A stretch of 64,000 nt of DNA from Candidatus Latescibacterota bacterium (GCA_965248355.1 OZ252098.1:2976001-3040000), one strand, 5' to 3'; positions 33,723 through 48,522 are shown, counted from the stretch's first letter. Notes: generated by a model not told the origin, from the sequence alone. Numbers and translations are program-made.

Positions 33723-36700
33723 TCAGACGTTGCGCAGAAGGATCAGGTTCCGGTGGTCCCGCCGCAGGTCGAACTGGGCGCCCAGGACCTCGGCGAAGGG
33801 GCTGGCCGCCGCCGGCCCGCCGTCGATCGTCTCGATCTCCAGCTGGCGCACCGGCTGCCGGGCGCGGGTCAGGAGGTGGTCGAGGGGCGCCAGGTACTCG
33901 GGCAGGCGCGGGTCGTCGGGGGCGACGTGGAAGACCAGCCGCCGGCCGTTGCGCCTCGACTCGAGGACCAGCCGCGCCCCGTGGTAGACCAGGTGCGTGC
34001 CCGCCACCCGCCGGGGCAGGGAGGCGCGCAGGCCCTCCAGCCCGAGGCCGCAGGCGGAGGCCGGATCGGCCGCCGAAAGCCAGTACACGGCCTCCTGAGG
34101 CAGGCCGCGGGAGAGCAGGCGGAAGGCGCGGTGGCTGGCGAACTGGGGCCCCGGCACGCCCTCGAAGAAGTGTCCGGCGAGGATCTCGCCCGACAGCTCC
34201 ATCAGCCGCAGGGCGCGGAAGAGCCCCTTCCACCGCAGGGCCGGCAGTTCGCGCTGCAGCAGCTCCCGGAAGAGCACGCCGTAGCGGTCGAGAAGCAGGC
34301 GCACGCGGTCCTTGTTGCGCTCCTCCTCCTCCAGCGGGTCCCCGGCCGGCTGCGGCTGCGGCAACAGCTGCCAGCTTCCGGGGTAGACGGCCGATCCCCG
34401 CCAGCGCCCGGCGGCCCGGCGCGACAGGCGGCCCCCCCGCGAACCGGGGCCGCGGAATTCGCCGCGGAGTCCGCCGCCCGGGCGGGAGTCCTCGATGGGG
34501 GCGGTCTCGGGCGGGCGGAAGCCGGTGTCCAGGCCGCGGCGCACGGCGGCGAAGGAATCGTTGCCGACGCGGCCGCACCAGGCGCCGTCCCACAGGGCCG
34601 CGGCCAGGGAGGCGGCGTCGCGACCGGCCACCTCCTGGAGGGTGGGGAAGTCGTAGCGGCCGTGGGGGTCGGGGAAGAGGGTGTCCACGCCGTTGCCGGG
34701 GCCGGCCGGCTCCTCCTCCTCTTCAGGGGACGGTCCGGAGAGCAGGTCGAGATCGTGCTCGAAGCAGAAGGTCAGGCGCTCGCGGCCGCAGCCGACCCAG
34801 CGCAGGCCGCTCTCCTGCAGGACCCCGTCGAGCAGCGAGGTCTGGTAGGAGCGCAGGCGCGCCGGCAGGATCTCGGTCTCCCACAGGGCGGCGGGGGCGC
34901 CGTAGCCGAGGAGGGGCTCCAGGCGGCGGCGCAGGGCCTCGGGCGTATCCCCGGGCTCGTGGAGGCCGTGGAAGACGGCCAGGAAGAGGGGCAGCTGGTC
35001 CACGGGCAGGGCCTGGAAGGCCGGCGTCGCGGCGGCCCGGGCCATGCGCAGCAGGGACTCGAGGTTCTCCGCCTCGCAGACCTGGTCCCGCTCCGCCCCC
35101 TCCACCAGGGGACCGACGACGACGGCCTGCTCGCCGGCCAGGTCGTCGAGCACGGACGGCAGGAGGTGGTCACCGAGGCCCAGGGTCCCCGCCAGCCGCC
35201 TGCAGTCGACCGGGCCGTAGTAGGAAAGCCAGCCGGCGACGGCGGCCTCGAGGGCGGGCTCATCCTGGACAGGCTCTTCGTCCCCGTCGCCGCGGGGGGT
35301 CTCGATCTCGAGGACCGCGCTGTCGAGGGCGGGCTCCTCCCGTGCGTCGCCGTCCCCGCCGCCTCCGCCGGTGTCGATCTCCAGGCCCGACTCCTCCGGC
35401 TCTTCGGCGCCCCCGTCGGCGCCCCTGTCGCCGCCACCGTCGCCGCCACCGTCGATCTCCGGCCCCCGCTCCTCCCGCCCATCTTCGGAGTTCCCTCCGC
35501 CTCCGCCGCCCTCGATCTCCAGTGCGGCGCCGTCCAGAGTCGTCACCCGCGCCGCGGGCCACCACGGAAACACGGCGAGCCGGTCCAGGGCCTGGCGGGC
35601 GGCGACCACCGGTTCGGCCAGGGCTCCGGCCTCGATGCGCACAAGCCGCCCATTCCATGCGCCCCCCTCCTCGATCCATCCCTCCTCCCCGGCGTCGTCC
35701 GAGTCCCGCGCCGCGGCGCCGAGCAGGGCCTCCCATTCGCTCCACGGGATCAGCAGCCGCTCGTCGACCCAGTCGACCAGTTCGCGCGCCTCGGACGGCG
35801 CGTACCCCGGATGCAGGCGCTGGCGCTTCTCCTCGAAACGGCGCACCACCTGACCCGGGAGGGCCGGCCGCAGGTCCGGGGTGAAGACGACCTCGCGCAA
35901 CAGGTCCGAACGCAGCTCCGAGGTCCGCCGGCCGGGGGCCTCGTCGCCCATGTACATGTACTGGTTGACCTGTCCCCAGGCGACGGAGCGGGAGAAGGGG
36001 CTGGGCCGGCTGGTGCGGCACTCCGACCACTCGATGGCGCCGGACTCGAGCTCGGAGAGCACGAGGCGCAGGGCCGTCAGGTCGAAGCCGTCCTGCAGGC
36101 AGGTGCGCCAGGCCTCGACGAGGATGGGGAAGTCCTCGTAGCGCATGACGGCGTCGAGCAGCCGCTGTGAGCGCAGGCGGCTCAGCCACAGGGGCATCCG
36201 TTCCGTCAGGCTGCGCCGCGTCAGCAGCAGGGCGCGCTGGGCGCACTCGCGGAAGCGGGCCCCGAAGTAGCCGGAGGCCTCCAGCCGCCGGCGCAGCAGC
36301 TCCTCCACGCGGCCGGAGGTGACCAGACTGAGGATCTCCTCGGAGCCGGTCTCTCCTGGCAGGACGAGGACGATGCAGTCGTTGGACGGGTAGACCTCGA
36401 TGCGGCCGCCGAAGCGCTCGTCCCAGGCGGCGTCGAGGGCCAGCGAGAAGGGCTGGTTGACGCGCCCGCCCCAGAACGTGTGCAGGACCACCTGGCTGCC
36501 CATGTGGCCCCCCGGCGCCGAGGCCACGTGCTCCACCAGCAGGTGATGGCGGTGGGGCAGGGGGGCGCCGGTGACCTCGCGCTGGCGGCGCAGGAAGTCG
36601 AGCAGCTGGCCGGCGGCGGTGTCGTCCATGTGGTGCCGCTCGGTGAGCCGCTGCCGGAAGGCGGGCGTCTCGAGGCTGGTCTCGGCCTCCTCGAGGAAGC

Positions 36701-38477
36701 TGCCGATGGCGCTGGAGAAGTGGAAGTCGCGGTTGGCGCCCTCCCCCTTCCAGAAGGGCAGGTCCACGGTCCGGGCCGGCGCCGGGGTCACGAAGACGTC
36801 GTTGTGGGTGATCCTGCGGATCGTCCAGTTCTGCGTGCCCAGGGTGAAGGACTGGCCCTCGGAAGACTCCCACACGAACTCCTCGTCCAACTCCCCCAGC
36901 TTCGCTCCGGAGTCCTCCAGGCGCAGGTTGAAGAGGCCGCGGTCGGGGATCGTGCCGCCGGACATGTAGAGCTGGCGCAGGGCCCCCTTGCGCGCCTCCA
37001 CCGTGTTGTCGAGGCGGTCCACGGTCAGGCGAGGCCGCAGGTCGCGCACGCGGCTGCCGGCGTAGCGGCCGGCGAGCATGTCCACGACGAGGTCGAACTG
37101 CCGGCGGCCCAGGTGCCGGTAGGGGAAGCTGGCGCGGACCTCGTCGTAGAGCTCGTCCAGGTCCCAGCTCTCGGTGCCGGCCATGGAGACCAGCACCTGG
37201 GCCAGGACATCGAGGGCGCCGGTGACGGGTTGGATCTCCTCGATGTCGTGAGCGTCGATCTGCGCCGCCAGCACCGCCGCCTCGAGGAAGTCGTGGCCGT
37301 GGGTGGGATAGAGGGTGGCCTTGCTCACCTCGCCGACCTGGTGGCCGGCGCGGCCGGCGCGCTGCACGGCGGAGGAGACCGATGGCGGCGACTGCACGAG
37401 GACGACCTCGTCCAGGGCGCCGATGTCGATGCCCATCTCCAGGGAGTTGGTGGCCACGATCGCCTTCAGCCCGCCCTCCTTCAGGCGGCGCTCCACGACC
37501 TCGCGGATCTCGCGCGACAGGGAGCCGTGATGGGCGTAGGCCAGGGGCTGCTCGCGGCCCTCGTTGAGGAAGCGGGTGATCTTCTCGCACAGGCGGCGGG
37601 CGTTGACGAAGAGCAGGGTCGAGCGGTTGCCGGCGATGATCTGTTCGAAGGCCTCGGCCATGGCCGGCCAGATCGAGTCGTCCTGATTCTCACCCTCGGC
37701 GTCGGCGGCCTCCGGGAAGCGCACGGAGACGTCGTAGCGCTTGGAGGCCGAGGAGCGCAGCACGGCCACCGGCCGCGGCTCGTAGCGCTCGCCCGGCAGG
37801 CGCCGGAAGCCGCCCACGAAGGCCGCCACCCGGTCCAGGGGTCGGACCGTGGCCGACAGGGAGAGGCGCTGGAACTCACCCGACAGGCGCACGAGGCGCT
37901 CCACGGCGGTGATCAGGTGGACGCCGCGCTTGCTGCCGACCACGGCGTGGATCTCGTCGAGGATGACGCATTGCAGGCCGGTGAGCAGGCCGCGCCCGCC
38001 CCCGGAGGAGAGCAGCAGGTTGAGGGACTCCGGGGTGGTGATCAGGATCTCCGGCGGCTGCCGCAGCATGCGGCGCCGGTCCTCCGGCGGCGTGTCCCCG
38101 GAGCGGGTGAGGGCGCGGATGGAGGGGAAGGGCTCGCCGGCGGCCCCGAAGCGCTGCCGCAGCTCCTCCAGCGGCCCCAGGAGGTTGCGCTGGATGTCGT
38201 TGTTGAGCGCCTTCAGGGGGGAGACGTAGAGGACGCTGGTGGCGCCCTCCGGCCAGTCGCCGCGGACCAGCCGGTCGAGGGCCCACAGGAAGGCGGTCAG
38301 GGTCTTGCCGGAGCCGGTGGGCGCGGTGACCAGCAGGTGCTCGCCGGCGGCGATCCGCGGCCAGGCGGCGGCCTGCACGTCGGTGGGGGTGCCGACGCGC
38401 TCGGCGAACCACCGGCGCACGAGGGGATGGAACAGCTCGAGGGCGTCCTCCGCCCCCGGCGGCGCGGCGGTGCTCAC
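33723..38477 (-). CDS. lhr: Lhr-family ATP-dependent helicase (long form)
   Basis: APTGSGKT, YVSPLKALNND, TTPESL, DEIH, SAT, HHGSLS, LEMGIDIG, QRAGRAGH and SGGTIPDRG motifs plus C-terminal winged-helix repeats; GTG start at 38477. Confidence 0.92.
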   Translation of the reverse strand: MSTAAPPGAEDALELFHPLVRRWFAERVGTPTDVQAAAWPRIAAGEHLLVTAPTGSGKTLTAFLWALDRLVRGDWPEGATSVLYVSPLKALNNDIQRNLLGPLEELRQRFGAAGEPFPSIRALTRSGDTPPEDRRRMLRQPPEILITTPESLNLLLSSGGGRGLLTGLQCVILDEIHAVVGSKRGVHLITAVERLVRLSGEFQRLSLSATVRPLDRVAAFVGGFRRLPGERYEPRPVAVLRSSASKRYDVSVRFPEAADAEGENQDDSIWPAMAEAFEQIIAGNRSTLLFVNARRLCEKITRFLNEGREQPLAYAHHGSLSREIREVVERRLKEGGLKAIVATNSLEMGIDIGALDEVVLVQSPPSVSSAVQRAGRAGHQVGEVSKATLYPTHGHDFLEAAVLAAQIDAHDIEEIQPVTGALDVLAQVLVSMAGTESWDLDELYDEVRASFPYRHLGRRQFDLVVDMLAGRYAGSRVRDLRPRLTVDRLDNTVEARKGALRQLYMSGGTIPDRGLFNLRLEDSGAKLGELDEEFVWESSEGQSFTLGTQNWTIRRITHNDVFVTPAPARTVDLPFWKGEGANRDFHFSSAIGSFLEEAETSLETPAFRQRLTERHHMDDTAAGQLLDFLRRQREVTGAPLPHRHHLLVEHVASAPGGHMGSQVVLHTFWGGRVNQPFSLALDAAWDERFGGRIEVYPSNDCIVLVLPGETGSEEILSLVTSGRVEELLRRRLEASGYFGARFRECAQRALLLTRRSLTERMPLWLSRLRSQRLLDAVMRYEDFPILVEAWRTCLQDGFDLTALRLVLSELESGAIEWSECRTSRPSPFSRSVAWGQVNQYMYMGDEAPGRRTSELRSDLLREVVFTPDLRPALPGQVVRRFEEKRQRLHPGYAPSEARELVDWVDERLLIPWSEWEALLGAAARDSDDAGEEGWIEEGGAWNGRLVRIEAGALAEPVVAARQALDRLAVFPWWPAARVTTLDGAALEIEGGGGGGNSEDGREERGPEIDGGGDGGGDRGADGGAEEPEESGLEIDTGGGGGDGDAREEPALDSAVLEIETPRGDGDEEPVQDEPALEAAVAGWLSYYGPVDCRRLAGTLGLGDHLLPSVLDDLAGEQAVVVGPLVEGAERDQVCEAENLESLLRMARAAATPAFQALPVDQLPLFLAVFHGLHEPGDTPEALRRRLEPLLGYGAPAALWETEILPARLRSYQTSLLDGVLQESGLRWVGCGRERLTFCFEHDLDLLSGPSPEEEEEPAGPGNGVDTLFPDPHGRYDFPTLQEVAGRDAASLAAALWDGAWCGRVGNDSFAAVRRGLDTGFRPPETAPIEDSRPGGGLRGEFRGPGSRGGRLSRRAAGRWRGSAVYPGSWQLLPQPQPAGDPLEEEERNKDRVRLLLDRYGVLFRELLQRELPALRWKGLFRALRLMELSGEILAGHFFEGVPGPQFASHRAFRLLSRGLPQEAVYWLSAADPASACGLGLEGLRASLPRRVAGTHLVYHGARLVLESRRNGRRLVFHVAPDDPRLPEYLAPLDHLLTRARQPVRQLEIETIDGGPAAASPFAEVLGAQFDLRRDHRNLILLRNV
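35245..35525 (-). repeat. Degenerate acidic/Gly-rich repeat insertion within lhr
   Basis: Four units beginning (L)EI[ED] followed by Gly/Asp runs and EE(P); tcgatctc recurs near 35302, 35374, 35452 and 35512. Confidence 0.65.
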
Positions 38478-42144: not shown

Positions 42145-43227
42145 TCAGGCGCGGTGCGCGTCGATGCGATCGGCGATTTGCCGGAGACGTTTCACCACAG
42201 CATCGAGCACCGCGTCGTATTCGACCGCAGTCGGAAGGACGATGGGCACAAGGATCGCCTGATTCTCTTCCAGGCACTCGGGTGGGTCACTTCGCTTGAG
42301 AGGCTCGAGGGCCCTACGCGTTTCCGGCCACCGGGCCTTGTACTGCTCATCTGTCGATAGCCCGAAGGAAAGCCAGAGGGGGGTATCCGAATAACCCCCC
42401 CGGGCCCACCAATTGAGGCCGATGCCAAACCAGGCGATGGCGCCTCTCAACGAGAGAAACCGTCCGTATCCGCGCGGGCGCCCGTATCTCGCCGGATACG
42501 GGGTGACATTCAACCCCCTGATATCCGCGTATCCTTGTTCCACGGCCCGGGCCGTGGCGTCGCGGATGAGGCGCTCCAGGCTGAGCAGCCGGCGGGGGAT
42601 CTCCGGCGCCAGCTCTTCCGGCCGGAGCGGGGGAAACCCACTCTCCTCATCCACCCGATGCGTAAGCCCCCGCAACTGCTGTATCTCGTTCCTTGAGGCG
42701 GAATCGGCCGCACCTTCGAGGCGGTCGAGCAGATGCGCCCAACTGATCATCATCAGGTGCTTCCCCTCATCAGTCGCGGCGCTCTTGAAGGCAGCCTTGT
42801 CGAGGACGGAGAGCAGGCGGTCAGCGCCCGCCCGGCGACGCAGTTCCGGCCAGAGCGTCTCAAGCCTCGATTCGGGCGCGATGAACAGCAGGGCCTTGCC
42901 CGGGGCCAACCTGTCGAGGTAAGCCCTCGGCTGGTTGGCGGTGAGGCCGGCCCAGAACTTCGCCTCCATCAACGCGCACTCCGTGCCTTGTCCGTCAAGG
43001 GCGACGAGATCCGGCCGCGTCTCTCCCTCCCCGCTGACCTGGGTCTGGACCCTGGCAATCGTTCCGACATCCGCGCGCCCATCCTTCAGCACTTCCTCGA
43101 TGACCCCACAACCCTCCGCGGACCTCAGGATGAACCCCAAGGCTTCCACCGCGATGTCCTCGTGGCGGGAGGAGAGTTTCCAGGCGAGATGGGCGAGCAG
43201 GGTGTCGCCTTCAGTCTTGTCTTCCAT
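42145..43227 (-). CDS. PD-(D/E)XK nuclease-like protein
   Basis: N-terminal E (HEDIAVEAL), RPDL, MEAKFWA and NQPRAY restriction-endonuclease-like motif; lower GC; SD GAAGGAG. Confidence 0.7.
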   Translation of the reverse strand: MEDKTEGDTLLAHLAWKLSSRHEDIAVEALGFILRSAEGCGVIEEVLKDGRADVGTIARVQTQVSGEGETRPDLVALDGQGTECALMEAKFWAGLTANQPRAYLDRLAPGKALLFIAPESRLETLWPELRRRAGADRLLSVLDKAAFKSAATDEGKHLMMISWAHLLDRLEGAADSASRNEIQQLRGLTHRVDEESGFPPLRPEELAPEIPRRLLSLERLIRDATARAVEQGYADIRGLNVTPYPARYGRPRGYGRFLSLRGAIAWFGIGLNWWARGGYSDTPLWLSFGLSTDEQYKARWPETRRALEPLKRSDPPECLEENQAILVPIVLPTAVEYDAVLDAVVKRLRQIADRIDAHRA

Positions 43228-43326
43228 GGTTCTCCTTCACCCCAATGTCTGTGACGTACATGCTGATCCATTCTACTCGCACAGCAGATCTATCCTCTCA
43301 TCCCGATGCCTGCGCGTGCCAATTCC

Positions 43327-46140
43327 TCAGGATCGCCAGGTGCGCCGGATATCCCGGGCAACCTCCGCGACCTCCTGAGCCACCCGGGGCATGCGGCCGA
43401 GTTCCTGTTCCAGTGCCGTGGTGAGAGGCAGCAGCAGCTTCGCCGATGGAGATGCCTGGATAAACTCGATCATGGGCTCCGGGCCGAGCTCGATGCTGAC
43501 TTGCATCAGTTCGTGGAAGCTTTCTGCTGGCAGAGGATCGCACTGGGGGAGGATCTGGAGGATCGTTTTGATTTCCCTCTGGCAGCAGGTCGGGTGACCG
43601 CTGCGCAGGCTGGCTTTGGCCCGTACCAGGTGACCACGCCACCGGTTCTCCTGCGATTGCGGGTTGCTCTCGTCCAGTACCCGGCCAGCGGTACATGCGG
43701 CTGCTTCGTAACGCCGGCACTCCAGCTCCAGTTCCGCTTTCTCGAGGAGGGCGTCCTCTACCCGTGCACGGAGTATGGGGGAATCATCTACCCCGAACCG
43801 CCGCACCACCTCCTCCAGTACAGCCAGGCCTTCCTCCGCCCGGTTCTGTTCCCCAAGTGTCATCCCCTTGTAGGTCAAGGCTATAGCCTGCGCTTCAAGA
43901 AGGGCCGATATCTCGCTTTCCCCGAATCGCTGGATTACCTCCTCATAGGCGGCCAGTTCTTCCTCTGGTCTGTCCAGCTCGCCGAGCGCGGCACCCTTGT
44001 TGACAAGGGCATTGGCAACCATCTCCAGAAGATCAGCTGTTTCGCTCTCCTCGAATCGGCGCACCACCTCCTCGTAGACGGCCAGCGATTCCTGGGTCCG
44101 GCCCAGCTCGCCGAGGGCGACCCCCTTGCGGAGGAGGGCCCTGGCGAGCAACGCCAGATGCACCTCCGTATCGCTCTCTCCGAGTCGGCGTCCCACCTCG
44201 TCATAGGCGGCCAGTGCCTCCTCCCGTCGGTTCAGGGCGGCTAGAGCGATGCCCTTGCAGAAGAGGGCTGCGGCGACCGGTTCAACAACCTCTGGTGACG
44301 GGCACTCGCCGAATCGATGCACGACCTCCTGGTAGGCGGCCAGTTCTTCATCCCTTCGATTCAAGCGGCCGAGTGTGCCTCCCTTGTTGAGAAGGGCCTT
44401 GGCGACCGTTTCGAGAGGGGCTGAAGTCTCACCCTCCGTGAATCGACCCACCACCTCATCGAAGACAGCCAGCGATTCCTCTGCTCGGTTCAGCTCTCCG
44501 AGTGTGACCCCCTTGTTGAGAAGGGCGTTGGCGGCGATCTCGACATGAACATCCGTATCCTCCTCGTCGAATCGTCGTCCCGCCTCCTCATAGGCGGCCA
44601 GTGTTTCCTCATAGCCCGCAAGTGCTTCCTCCGGTCGGTTCAGCTCTCCGAGGGCCTCCGCTTTGCAGAGGAGGGCTAGGACGACCAGTTGGAAGACCTC
44701 GGGTGACCGGCTCTCCCCGAACCGCCGCACCACCTCGTCCCAGGTGGCCAGCGCCTCCTCCGGGTCTTGCTCCTGCAACTCGACCGCTCTGTGCAAGAGC
44801 GCCTTAGCAGCCGCCAGCCCTTCGGGTTCCTCCTCGGGGAGGAGCGCAAGCAACTCTTCTCGATCCCCGGCCAGCACCGGCAGCTGCACCAGCTGTTGAA
44901 CCGCCGTTCGGTGGAGAGATCGCATCTCCCCGTCCAGGGAGCGTGCCTCCCGGGCCATTCTTTTGCTGATGTCCCTCAACTCAGACCGAGAGTAGAACGA
45001 CTCCATGAATCGGATGAGGGCATGGATCAACGAGTCCGGACCGCCGTTGCGGCGCAACAGGTAGTAGATGTTGTACAGGCGCTCGCTCAGGTAGTACTCC
45101 TTGCGGCGGGCGTTTCCGCCCGTCACCTGGACGACGCCTCGTTCGATGAGACGGGTGAGCTGGGCGCTGCACTTGCTCGTGTCGACGCGGGAGCGCTCCG
45201 CGATCTCCCTCGTGGTCGCCGGCTTCCACAGGTCGGCCAGCGCCAGGTAGACCCGCCGCTCCTGGGCGGGGAGGGACTCTATGTGACTCTTGAAGTACTC
45301 CGTGTGCTCGTCGACGAGGTCGAGGAGGTCGTCCATCAGCTCGCGGAAAGAGAGTTCCGCGCCGAAGCGGGCTACGATGGCCACGAGGCGGGGGCTGCCG
45401 CCCGTGAGGATCTCCAGGGGCCGGATCGTCTGGCGCGGGGGGCGCTGGCCGGAGATCGTTTCCCACAGCGCGGCGCACTCATCGGTGTCGAGGGGTTTCA
45501 GCGTCCGTACCCGGAACAGGTCGTACAGGGCGTGGTCGGGGTTGTCGATCTCGGCGAAGCGGCTGGTGGCGCTGGCGAGCAGGATGATGCGCGGCTCGGT
45601 CTGGAGGATCTTGCGCAGCCGCCAGCCGGCGTCGCGGTCCGCCATGTCCCGGAACATCATGTTCAGGTTCTCGACCACCAGCACGAGTCGCTTGCCCTCG
45701 CGGTCGGAGAAGTCGAGGAGGGCACCGAGGCAACGGTCGCCGAGGGTCTGGTCGTCCTGAATGGTGCGCAGGTCCCGGTAGGTGCGATGCAGGTCCGGAG
45801 CGTCGTCCCGGGACGGCGCCTGGTCCGCCAGGCGGGAGAGGGCCTCCAGCCAGAACTCCCCGACGCTGGAGACTTCGTAGCTCTCCTCGGCGAAGACGAT
45901 GGGAAAGAAGCCGTGCGACAACTCCGGGTCCCGGCGGACCTCGGCCGCCACGCGCAGGAGCAGGCTGGTCTTGCCGCTGCCGCGGGGGCCGATCACGATC
46001 TGATGCGGATTCGAGGGGCCGCTGCATTCGCGCAGCAGTTCGACCATGGAGTCGTACTCGGCCGTGCGCACGCAGAACGAGGTAGTCAGTTCCTCGTCGG
46101 TGAGGAACCCCGGGTTGTACTTCCTGACGGCCATGGTCAT
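43327..46140 (-). CDS. STAND-like P-loop ATPase with winged HTH and 43-aa TPR-like repeats
   Basis: Walker A IGPRGSGKTS; atypical Walker B LVLVVENLN; GGSPR; HTH TTREIAERSRVDTSKCSAQLTRLIERG; eight TPR-like repeats. ATGA overlap with the upstream ATPase (alternative ATG at 46134). Confidence 0.85.
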   Translation of the reverse strand: MTMAVRKYNPGFLTDEELTTSFCVRTAEYDSMVELLRECSGPSNPHQIVIGPRGSGKTSLLLRVAAEVRRDPELSHGFFPIVFAEESYEVSSVGEFWLEALSRLADQAPSRDDAPDLHRTYRDLRTIQDDQTLGDRCLGALLDFSDREGKRLVLVVENLNMMFRDMADRDAGWRLRKILQTEPRIILLASATSRFAEIDNPDHALYDLFRVRTLKPLDTDECAALWETISGQRPPRQTIRPLEILTGGSPRLVAIVARFGAELSFRELMDDLLDLVDEHTEYFKSHIESLPAQERRVYLALADLWKPATTREIAERSRVDTSKCSAQLTRLIERGVVQVTGGNARRKEYYLSERLYNIYYLLRRNGGPDSLIHALIRFMESFYSRSELRDISKRMAREARSLDGEMRSLHRTAVQQLVQLPVLAGDREELLALLPEEEPEGLAAAKALLHRAVELQEQDPEEALATWDEVVRRFGESRSPEVFQLVVLALLCKAEALGELNRPEEALAGYEETLAAYEEAGRRFDEEDTDVHVEIAANALLNKGVTLGELNRAEESLAVFDEVVGRFTEGETSAPLETVAKALLNKGGTLGRLNRRDEELAAYQEVVHRFGECPSPEVVEPVAAALFCKGIALAALNRREEALAAYDEVGRRLGESDTEVHLALLARALLRKGVALGELGRTQESLAVYEEVVRRFEESETADLLEMVANALVNKGAALGELDRPEEELAAYEEVIQRFGESEISALLEAQAIALTYKGMTLGEQNRAEEGLAVLEEVVRRFGVDDSPILRARVEDALLEKAELELECRRYEAAACTAGRVLDESNPQSQENRWRGHLVRAKASLRSGHPTCCQREIKTILQILPQCDPLPAESFHELMQVSIELGPEPMIEFIQASPSAKLLLPLTTALEQELGRMPRVAQEVAEVARDIRRTWRS
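43709..44760 (-). repeat. Eight 43-aa (129-bp) TPR-like repeats with higher-order triplet structure
   Basis: Consensus EEALAAYEEVVRRFGES.......VA.ALLNKG..LGELNR; unit 2 carries a 7-aa internal duplication. Confidence 0.85.
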
Positions 46141-47399
46141 CGCCCTTCGATGGGGACGAAGTGCCCGCCGTGCCGGGCGCGCCACCAGTCCTCGAGCAAG
46201 CCGGAAACGAACCGGTAGCCGTCTCCGTGCCGCTCCAGGTACCCGTCGTGTTCGAGCACGCGGAGCACATCCTCGACCGGGACCGTATCCGCGTTAGCCT
46301 CGGCCTCGTTCCGGGACCCACCTTGGAGATACTCGCGGTAGCGGCCAATCGTATCGCCGCTCAGCGAGCCGTCACCGACGGCAGCCTCAGTCAGAATCTC
46401 CAGCGCGGTCCGGTAGCCCTCCCTCCCCAGAACCATCCTCAGCCGGCCTTCGTAATGCTCCAGGTCCATCTGTCCGCGGACGCCGAGCATCTCGTTGGTG
46501 TACACGCGCTCCACGTCTTCCATCGTGGCTTCACGCCGGCCGGCGCGGCGCAGGTCCTCGTGGAGGTTGTCGAAGAACTGCTGTACGTGGTGGGGGATCT
46601 GGCACCGCAGCCGGCGGCACATCTCCCGGCGGACGGCGAGGGGAAGGTCGAGGCGGTAGGTCTGCGCCAGCTTCGCGAGGCAGGCGGCCGCCGTCTGGTC
46701 GTCCCAGGGCTCCAGGTTGAAGGGGGAGTAGATGTTCGCGTGAGCGCTGAGGCCGGCCTGTGCCAGGATCGGCTCCAGGCTGACGCTGCCGGCGAGGATC
46801 AGGATGACCCGGCCCCGATGGGTCTGGCCGTTCTTGCGGAGCCAGCCCATGAACTCGTCCACCGCCTGCCGCCGCTCCGGGGTGATGTGGTGTTCAGGTC
46901 CCTTGAGCAGCCGGTTGACGAGGATCGGCAACTCGTCGATGGCCAGCACCACCGGCCGGTCGCTCTCGGCCAGGGCGGCGAAGACCTCGTCCCCCTTCTG
47001 CCGCCAGTTCCCGGTGTCGATCCCCGCCCGAAGCTTGACCTGGACCTCGGCGATGGTCACCAAATCGACTCGATCGCCGGCCTCTCTCAGGGCGTTGGCG
47101 AATCCCGACTTGATGCGCGGCCACGCGCCCTGCACCGACCTCGACCGGGCCCCGATCTCGGCGACGGCGTCCGCCGGGGCGGCGGCGTCCTCCAGGTCGA
47201 CGAAGACCGTCTCGAAGCGGCCCTCTTCGTCCAGGCGGCGCAGCAGCTCCCGGACCAGGCTCGTCTTGCCTATCCGCCGCTGCGCGGTCAGGAGTGTGTG
47301 AGTGCCGTCCCGAACCCGTTCGGCGAGCGCCTCGAGCTCAACCTCCCGGTCGAAGAACCGGTCCCCGTCAACCCAGTTGGCCCCGGCTTTCCTGAGCAT
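46137..47399 (-). CDS. STAND-like/archaeal-ATPase-type P-loop ATPase with C-terminal winged helix
   Basis: FFDREVEL, Walker A TAQRRIGKTS, Walker B VLAIDELP, LAGSV and C-terminal LEHDGYL...YRFVSGLLEDWW; SD GAGGAGG. Confidence 0.85.
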   Translation of the reverse strand: MLRKAGANWVDGDRFFDREVELEALAERVRDGTHTLLTAQRRIGKTSLVRELLRRLDEEGRFETVFVDLEDAAAPADAVAEIGARSRSVQGAWPRIKSGFANALREAGDRVDLVTIAEVQVKLRAGIDTGNWRQKGDEVFAALAESDRPVVLAIDELPILVNRLLKGPEHHITPERRQAVDEFMGWLRKNGQTHRGRVILILAGSVSLEPILAQAGLSAHANIYSPFNLEPWDDQTAAACLAKLAQTYRLDLPLAVRREMCRRLRCQIPHHVQQFFDNLHEDLRRAGRREATMEDVERVYTNEMLGVRGQMDLEHYEGRLRMVLGREGYRTALEILTEAAVGDGSLSGDTIGRYREYLQGGSRNEAEANADTVPVEDVLRVLEHDGYLERHGDGYRFVSGLLEDWWRARHGGHFVPIEGR

Positions 47400-47409
47400 G
47401 GCCGTCCTC

Positions 47410-47478
47410 CTCTCCAACGAATTCGTTGGCAACAATCGTGTTGGCAACGAATCTGTTGGCAACGCCGGGGCATGTCAA
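47410..47478 (-). promoter_or_regulatory. Promoter with three 15-bp-period GTTGCCAAC operators
   Basis: Minus strand TTGACA (47473-78)-N17-CAGATT. Plus-strand GTTGGCAAC at 47425, 47440 and 47455, plus the perfect palindrome CCAACGAATTCGTTGG at 47414-29. Confidence 0.8.
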
Positions 47479-47600: not shown

Positions 47601-47816
47601 TCACCGGGACTCGGCCCGCTGCCTGCAGAGCGTGCGCCGCCGGATTTCAAGGTCGGCGCGATCGAGGGCCGGATCGTGGGGGGGCATCTCCGGGTGCAGG
47701 GGGTAGCTCGACCGGAAGACCTCGAGGGTATCGGGCCGGGAGGCGTCAGCAGCGAGGGAGTCCTTGTTCGCCGCCCAGATATCCCGGCATGTCTCGAATA
47801 TCGTTGCGACCGTCAT
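47601..47816 (-). pseudogene. Short gene relic, possibly a deleted DUF499-type ATPase
   Basis: Coupled to vapC (ATGA). TIFETCR and FRSSYPLHPE resemble distant parts of DUF499 proteins, from recall only. Confidence 0.3.
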
Positions 47817-48268
47817 TGGTTCCGTGGCCGGGCGGTCCAGGGGTCAACGGTCTCGACGCCGGTGTTGCGGAACTCGCCCGTGTTCCGCGTGACGATGCCG
47901 AGCCCGCGCGTTGCAGCCGCTGCCGCGAGGAAGGCGTCCGGCATGTGATCGTCCAGCGCCTCGCCGCGCCTGCGCTTGTCCTCCATGATCCGTGCGCATG
48001 CCTGTGCATCGGCGAGGGCCCAGTGGACGATCCGGTCCTCGAACAACTCGTCGAGAAGATCGCGAAACCGTTCCGAGAGGCCGCGTCGGCGCCGGCCGGG
48101 AGCCAGACGACCGATGCCGTCAAGCACCTCCCAGACGGTGATGGACGCGAGGCCAATGCCTTCGGGCTCGATCGCATCGAGAAAGGCGGCGACCTGCGGT
48201 TCGGGCCGCGGGCGCATCATCTCGGAGACGACGTTGGTGTCTATCAGCCACGCGAGCGGGGAGGTCAT
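47813..48268 (-). CDS. vapC: PIN-domain VapC/FitB-like toxin
   Basis: LIDTNVVSE, ITVWE, PDAFLAAAA and VTRNTGEF...VDPW motifs. Confidence 0.92.
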   Translation of the reverse strand: MTSPLAWLIDTNVVSEMMRPRPEPQVAAFLDAIEPEGIGLASITVWEVLDGIGRLAPGRRRRGLSERFRDLLDELFEDRIVHWALADAQACARIMEDKRRRGEALDDHMPDAFLAAAAATRGLGIVTRNTGEFRNTGVETVDPWTARPRNQ

Positions 48269-48522
48269 CCCTCCTCTCCACCGGAGAACGACAGCGGCCT
48301 GTAGCCGTAACGAATCGGGGGCGGAAGTTCGATGCCGTGATCCTCCCCGAAATGCCGGGCGAAGGCCTCGGACGGCTTCGGCCGGCGCTCGGTCTTTGTG
48401 CGCTTCTCGTGGATCAGCCTGCGGACCAGTTCTTCCATCGACACTCCGGTCTGCCGGGCTTCGCGCCGGAGCCAGGACTTGTCTCCGGGGTCGATATCGC
48501 GAACGGTGATGCTGGTGCCCAT
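48265..48522 (-). CDS. FitA-like ribbon-helix-helix antitoxin
   Basis: SITVRDID...LRREARQTGVSMEELVRRLI; SD AGGAGG; ATGA overlap with the toxin. Confidence 0.88.
   Translation of the reverse strand: MGTSITVRDIDPGDKSWLRREARQTGVSMEELVRRLIHEKRTKTERRPKPSEAFARHFGEDHGIELPPPIRYGYRPLSFSGGEEG

Follow-up and report, generated by a model that had tools for sequence, protein, structure and literature searches.

A widespread two-gene ATPase cassette with a conserved operator in its own promoter: a candidate self-repressed sensor and its ATPase partner

The window analysed here is a stretch of 64,000 nucleotides from Candidatus Latescibacterota bacterium (GCA_965248355.1 OZ252098.1:2976001-3040000), in which two coupled genes for STAND-like ATPases, here called ATPase-1 and ATPase-2, are followed by a nuclease-like gene. 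ATPase-1 and ATPase-2 make up a widespread mobile two-gene cassette that matches no named system. The cassette's promoter carries a palindromic operator array (47415-47464), absent from the original prediction made for this DNA, and the winged helix-turn-helix (wHTH) of ATPase-2 likely reads it. Our proposal for the whole, which we hold tentatively and rate somewhat below an even chance, is that a self-repressed sensor keeps a costly ATPase partner in check and is triggered by a signal from an invader.

The ATPase-1 gene (46137-47399, minus strand) encodes a protein of 420 residues with the motifs AQRRIGKTS and VVLAIDE and a match to Pfam ATPase_2. It is coupled by an ATGA overlap at 46137-46140 to the ATPase-2 gene (43327-46140, minus strand), whose 937-residue product has the motifs GPRGSGKTS and VVENLN and consists of an NTPase, a wHTH, TPR-like repeats and a C-terminal cap. 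A gap of 99 bp separates ATPase-2 from the nuclease-like open reading frame (42145-43227, minus strand). This anatomy, with its Walker motifs, ATGA coupling, wHTH and 99-bp gap, agrees in full with what had been described, and the eight TPRs of 43 residues can be read as eight units of about 43 residues, the first partial and one with an insertion. Each of the three genes is single-copy in its own genome. In the contigs of one sequencing run, possibly from the source sample, the pieces covering the region were identical to the window. The description of the region as a lower-GC island holds against the flanks, with a G+C content of 65.4% versus 73.1% on both sides, and is weak against the genome, where the mean is 68.9% and 14% of equal-sized windows are as low.

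To study the family, two sets of loci were used, one selected with ATPase-2 (the best 80 of 113 confirmed genome loci, chosen without regard to ATPase-1 or to the tail of ATPase-2) and one with ATPase-1 (80 of 417 confirmed metagenome loci). All counts below include kin, are therefore not independent, and are inflated by that kinship. ATPase-1 sequence, whole or broken, lies directly upstream in 75/80 of the ATPase-2-selected loci, and ATPase-2 follows ATPase-1 in 75/80 metagenome loci; among the remaining five, four contigs end too soon (within 137 bp) and one is interrupted. Pairwise identities of ATPase-1 and ATPase-2 correlate (rho 0.90 over 63 pairs), and the two profiles align with each other at 95% probability in hhalign, as paralogue-like subunits would. 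The pair is thus conserved and co-evolving, which supports the earlier reading of the two as a pair. Among 7999 candidates scored, 2024 are relatives of ATPase-1. A search with residues 1-370 of ATPase-2 gave 4252 clusters at 50% identity, 1452 of them with E values up to 1e-30, and total lengths among the best 150 relatives range from about 270 to 1590 residues. ATPase-2 N-domains at 74-80% identity occur across Proteobacteria, Acidobacteria, Binatia and others, while genomes of the same class carry ATPase-1 at only 41-44% identity, a distribution that argues for horizontal spread. More distant pairs, at 22-27% identity, are found on Clostridium, Moraxella and Segatella plasmids; no relatives were found in viral contigs or annotated phages. 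PADLOC gave no match better than E 1e-4 for either ATPase, the best being 1.4e-4 over short P-loop stretches, with a 2023 library that lacks newer families. NCBIfam gave no match over cut-off for any of five window proteins, only weak P-loop or TPR matches. Literature searches returned no paper on the ATPase pair or the operator, though the supplementary clade tables of Lee et al. or the paper of Leipe et al. 2004 may already list the family, unnamed or under another name.

By its sequence, ATPase-1 belongs to the STAND-related ATPases of archaeal type (PF01637), and both of its Walker motifs are intact. It scores 34.4 bits against ATPase_2 (PF01637), just above the cut-off of 33.2, its Pfam match to AAA_35 is weak (E 0.002), and the best PDB match of its profile is 2qen. 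RRxGKTS and the DE pair (D155, E156) are kept in 63/63 intact copies. The recognition-helix region of its C-terminal winged helix varies across the family. No effector domain was found in ATPase-1 among Pfam and PADLOC profiles. A hidden catalytic site built on conserved histidines was considered and dropped, as those residues change in the distant plasmid homologues.

ATPase-2 matches AAA_16 (passing the cut-off), a TrmB-type wHTH at residues 293-349 and TPR families in Pfam; its ATPase_2 (PF01637) score of 18.5 is under the cut-off. In almost every one of the 150 best representatives the NTPase begins no more than ~10 residues from the N-terminus; the wHTH spans residues ~290-365, the repeats ~447-790 (with a 129-bp period in the DNA by the TRF program), and the cap ~790-937. 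Walker A is intact and Walker B has the form hhhhEN family-wide (E157 in 151/151, N158 in 150/151), a selected trait of the family and not decay; general P-loop chemistry predicts weak ATP hydrolysis for such a motif. A GxP-type motif is present as TGGSPR, and TGG[NS]PR is near-invariant among relatives. The cap is likewise conserved, with a cap-profile match in 215/222 homologues, after a repeat region that varies from 100 to 1000 residues across relatives. The best fold match for the model of the ATPase-2 core (predicted local distance difference test score 79.8) is 2qen (Z 21.7, root-mean-square deviation 3.8, 325 aligned residues), then 2fna (Z 19.9), followed by Orc1/Cdc6 and NLRs. The wHTH is the most conserved part of the protein between congeners (91-93% identity). 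All cassette parts are under purifying selection when compared with two congeners, the repeats being least constrained (dN/dS, the ratio of nonsynonymous to synonymous rates, 0.38-0.39). No effector domain was found in ATPase-2 among Pfam or PADLOC profiles or beyond the repeats, and no LuxR-type HTH among the Pfam families shown. The earlier remark that neither ATPase has a fused effector therefore holds for Pfam, PADLOC and the analysis of the cap.

The operator array consists of three exact CAAC-N6-GTTG palindromes with a 15-bp period, starting at 47415, 47430 and 47445, and is placed between a TTGACA read from the sequence as the putative -35 hexamer of the cassette promoter (47473-47478, minus strand) and the ribosome-binding site. 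Tandem CAAC-N6-GTTG was present in 62/72 upstream regions (the window and 71/80 loci, the other nine having no usable ATPase-1 start) versus 5/9021 control windows, and at least one operator unit precedes 80/80 of the metagenome copies. TTGAC occurs within 45 nt before the last operator unit in 36/72 upstream regions. A consensus promoter scan did not call the cassette promoter, whose putative -10 would sit inside the operator and be too weak for the scan. The cassette's own promoter is the only tandem operator site in the 5.5-Mb genome, and a search of that genome for an operator regulon found none.

Three observations point to ATPase-2 as the reader of the operator. Its wHTH is conserved, unlike the corresponding region of ATPase-1, which varies. 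Further, the operator stays with solo ATPase-2 genes, being kept directly upstream of 7/7 such genes in genomes with no ATPase-1 match (one genus) and upstream of solo copies on Agrobacterium and Sphingobium plasmids. Finally, at L089 (8620-8760) a variant operator, CAAG-N6-CTTG, accompanies changes in the ATPase-2 wHTH, including near-invariant R330 to H, so that operator base and residue change together, in one case. The DNA-binding role originally suggested for a winged helix is thus backed by a family-wide operator, and self-repression by ATPase-2 at this promoter is likely. In the distant Moraxella and Clostridium pairs, too, repeated palindromes are kept, with other half-sites and a 6-nt spacer rich in A/T (L117:3620-3830, L118:4600-4812). 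Tandem operator-like arrays off the cassette promoter, with no relic traced, were seen at L031:2628, L031:11062, L035:8257 and L069:6168; the one at L031:11062 precedes a gene resembling a DNA methyltransferase.

Loss of the two genes is asymmetric. ATPase-1 is broken or absent in 15/78 informative loci, one of them with an assembly gap, versus loss of the ATPase-2 cap in 1/80 (p about 1e-4), and the single cap-loss locus, like one locus without the ATPase-2 N-terminus, is also without ATPase-1. An even sample of 121 genomes across the phylum contained ATPase-2 in 47 and ATPase-1 in 40, and every genome with ATPase-1 also had ATPase-2. In several genomes ATPase-1 is internally deleted ahead of an open ATPase-2. 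In genus g17 (L200-L206, L214, L215, L104-L106) we observed a conserved second ATPase-2 of about 820 residues with its own operator and under purifying selection; some genomes have it downstream of the pair, and in seven others it stands alone.

The third gene of the window likely encodes a PD-(D/E)XK nuclease, as predicted from its motif and fold: D73, E88 and K90 of its 360 residues are invariant in 59/59 homologues, and a model of residues 8-177 resembles many restriction-enzyme folds at modest Z scores of 5-7. The protein has no Pfam family match, and its model gave no Foldseek match at E up to 0.001; an atlas search offered a lead, PDDEXK_4 in 22/30 matches, the family being carried by 12% of the members of the best such cluster. 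The original prediction proposed this separate nuclease as an effector, a link that on its own terms would fall if the two did not co-occur, and by that test it fails. A profile of the 59 nuclease sequences, run over 196 loci, matched only two, both from congeners, and 0/160 from other organisms, of which 103 have at least 1 kb downstream. In the window and these two congeners the nuclease adjoins the pair at an orthologous site, with a 99-bp gap, an overlap and a gap of ~40 bp, respectively; in G019 and G029 nuclease homologues lie far from the pair or in a genome without it.

Could the pair nevertheless sense an invader and act through the nuclease as a third component of its own? On that strand the scan showed no terminator-like site separating ATPase-2 from the nuclease, the nuclease is under purifying selection versus the congeners (dN/dS 0.26-0.27), and in a fourth congener, G002, an orphan operator is fused to the last 27 nuclease codons (L110:7709-7800), the trace of one deletion that took all three genes together. 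These points favour a three-gene system, but the linked copies represent one orthologous locus, and the profile results above leave the reading very unlikely and, as a feature of the family, largely refuted. The nuclease is a local passenger and not the pair's weapon; it may be co-transcribed, in this genus only. Because it is missing from relatives, and the next gene is often on the opposite strand, the relevant unit narrows to two genes and their promoter.

For this unit we propose the following scheme. The ATPase-2 wHTH would bind the palindromic operator in its own promoter, giving self-repression, and ATPase-2 would hold ATPase-1 in check until the TPR array meets an invader-derived signal. 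From the hhhhEN motif, ATPase-2 probably binds ATP and hydrolyses it poorly, with ATPase-1 as the hydrolysing partner. We lean slightly towards the two proteins co-assembling, with the C-terminal cap keeping ATPase-2 off, much like the C-terminal helix of Avs7. In the last step, for which our confidence stops just short of even, a ligand on the TPRs would release repression, and the ATPase-1/ATPase-2 assembly itself would be the costly output, for example growth arrest, protecting against phage or mobile DNA. A number of observations weigh against this scheme. In neither protein did we find an effector domain, so the output step is a guess. At L153 and L211 an intact ATPase-1 accompanies a broken ATPase-2; the L211 genome has four other ATPase-2 copies. 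Solo ATPase-2 copies are under purifying selection (dN/dS 0.09-0.36), which argues that ATPase-2 is more than a brake on ATPase-1, and the seven solo ATPase-2 genomes all belong to one genus. Positive selection on the TPR region, sought between congeners at the level of the whole region, was not found, the region being only relaxed. The next gene lies on the opposite strand in 50/79 loci. Finally, the enrichment of defence neighbours, described below, is modest, and most neighbours are housekeeping or unannotated genes.

In an alternative that we consider unlikely, though a good deal less so than the nuclease reading, ATPase-2 is a signal-responsive transcription regulator, with MalT/IniR-like logic, of itself and of adjacent cargo such as defence operons, ATPase-1 is an accessory resetting subunit, and the pair is non-toxic. 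In its favour, solo ATPase-2 genes retain the operator and are under purifying selection, and on an Agrobacterium plasmid (L116:1286-9195; NZ_CP039924.1) a solo ATPase-2 stands head-to-head with a cyclase, cyclase, ThiF operon, with operators filling the shared 160-bp gap, possibly as a sensor regulating a defence operon. Further, the ATPase of IniR, a regulator, was predicted to resemble SSO1545 (PMC5760070), and SSO1545 is a top fold match of ATPase-2. Against it, the bacterium's own genome has no second tandem operator, and single units there (24) are no more frequent than other spacings (18-77). Two of the additional arrays near homologous loci go back to relic or deleted cassettes, with four left unexplained, and the downstream gene is on the same strand and within 150 bp in only 12/79 loci, with no common family except a DUF1156 methylase in two.

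Another alternative is a selfish addiction module with toxin-antitoxin logic, in which ATPase-1 is costly, ATPase-2 is antidote and repressor, and the host gains no protection. In its favour are the autorepression architecture, the wide horizontal spread with insertion among unrelated genes, the recurrent internal deletions that disrupt ATPase-1 but keep ATPase-2 open, and, indirectly, the asymmetric loss. Against it, a long, variable repeat array and a conserved cap would be costly equipment if ATPase-2 were no more than an antidote, solo ATPase-2 stays conserved where ATPase-1 is lost, congener G002 deleted the whole unit, and L153 and L211 conflict with a strict toxin-antidote reading; we judge the addiction module to be quite improbable. 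To return to the sensor and its restrained partner, a broader version, speculative and on the unlikely side, is a paired-NLR-like machine without a separate weapon. Its first subunit would combine the roles of pattern sensor, sequence-specific autorepressor and brake; the second, a bare ATPase, would act as the effector itself when released. Lineages could keep several sensors per helper or reuse a lone sensor to regulate anti-phage operons nearby.

Comparison with known proteins gives several partial likenesses. PAB2304 (2qen), SSO1545 (2fna) and PF01637 have the same NTPase, helical lid with a GxP-type motif and wHTH. They differ in that here there are two coupled subunits, one with a TPR array and cap, and a conserved operator, and identity to these solved structures is 14-16%. 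The ATPase-1 profile, too, has its best sequence matches among these proteins. Leipe and colleagues reportedly assigned archaeal-type STAND-related ATPases to an MNS clade. Npun2340 and Npun2341 are presumably paired genes of that clade; the Npun2340/2341 family is named in PMC8195603. Avs proteins, as described by Lee et al. (10.64898/2026.01.04.697583), include Avs1-21, with a STAND NTPase and a C-terminal TPR-like helical sensor, and Avs7, which a conserved C-terminal helix helps to keep inactive. ATPase-2 resembles them in its STAND-like NTPase with a C-terminal TPR-like sensor, and its cap may parallel the Avs7 helix. Unlike Avs proteins, ATPase-2 has no N-terminal effector, has a second ATPase gene, a variant Walker B and its own operator, and has no PADLOC match better than E 1e-4. 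Its architecture is that of an Avs or paired-NLR sensor, but the missing effector and profile match place it outside Avs.

The nSTAND2 two-gene operon is described by Kaur et al. 2021 (PMC8195603) as mobile and as encoding two STAND NTPases, one predicted to be less active, in a proposed hetero-multimer. Two adjacent STAND NTPase genes and mobility are thus common to both systems, but in that account the motifs of the inactive nSTAND2 copy are eroded and a GT4 or HEPN effector is fused to it, whereas in ATPase-2 Walker A is intact, the variant Walker B is invariant, and the fusion is a TPR array with a cap. Neither ATPase matched Pfam nSTAND2 (PF20702) at E up to 0.1. MalT and IniR (PMC5760070) also combine an ATPase, a helical-repeat sensor and a DNA-binding domain; the ATPase-2 wHTH lies between NTPase and repeats, as in Orc1/Cdc6, instead of C-terminally, and ATPase-2 differs further in that no regulon was found for it and in having a partner ATPase in its operon. 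BrxR, CapW and RptR are reported as repressors of defence operons that exert control at a nearby operator, a likeness shared by the cassette. Autoregulated toxin-antitoxin-like modules appear similar in that an operator in the module's own promoter stays with one of two genes. Passages of PMC7159879, PMC12839542 and 10.64898/2026.10.19.760177 describe only inactive-STAND or ParA systems of other kinds.

In the NLR-like immune proteins known from bacteria, the effector is part of the same polypeptide, and the paired STAND operons known so far are predictions in which effectors are fused; the present family is large, spans many phyla and has no effector that we could find. Since a 14-bp operator is conserved in distant hosts, whether an NLR-type winged helix binds DNA can be tested directly. 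Should the cassette prove to serve defence, it would represent, in bacteria, a sensor and helper in which pattern recognition is combined with transcriptional self-control; otherwise it is still an uncharacterised, widespread switch.

Defence-island enrichment, proposed earlier as a check on the pair, is weakly supported. In the 80 loci, PADLOC found defence genes among 14/150 nearest versus 3/104 distal genes (p=0.07), and Pfam found defence or toxin-antitoxin genes among 27/150 versus 8/104 (p=0.025), with classes assigned by hand, genes from a simple gene caller, proteins cut to 600 residues, and the four shortest of 154 nearest genes left out. Generic matches (ABC/SMC, sigma-54, kinases, IstB; four near and five distal) were excluded by hand, the distal control genes lie only 5-10 kb away, and four of the near matches stem from one related methylase. 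The signal looks genuine but modest. Plasmid copies adjoin Pycsar/AbiE, a cyclase-ThiF operon, a WYL regulator and a GIY-YIG nuclease. At L011, L013, L014 and L015, which come from different classes, a DUF1156/HmaB-like methylase operon lies downstream of ATPase-2, which suggests insertion into one larger mobile defence element.

Upstream of the pair in the window are the PIN toxin and FitA-like ribbon-helix-helix antitoxin genes and the gene relic that had been noted there. The relic (47601-47816, minus strand) is a chimera that contains the C-terminal end of a PtuA-like ATPase, and this end corresponds to genes in the same slot of congeners. The PIN gene (47813-48268, minus strand; Pfam PIN) and the antitoxin gene (48265-48522, minus strand) are variable cargo. 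A PIN homologue occurs in only 1/80 loci. Between a dehydrogenase gene and the pair, each of the four congeneric genomes compared has a slot of different content: FitAB and the PtuA relic in the bacterium's own genome, AbiEii/Mrr/PtuA in G006, PtuA/PtuB in G007, and unassigned genes in G002. FitAB is local cargo in a defence-cargo slot, outside the unit. Five further homologues of the window's PIN toxin, at 31-37% identity, are found elsewhere in the bacterium's own genome (G000). To the left of the island, a large Lhr-like helicase gene (33723-38477, minus strand) is conserved in congeners and split in G007.

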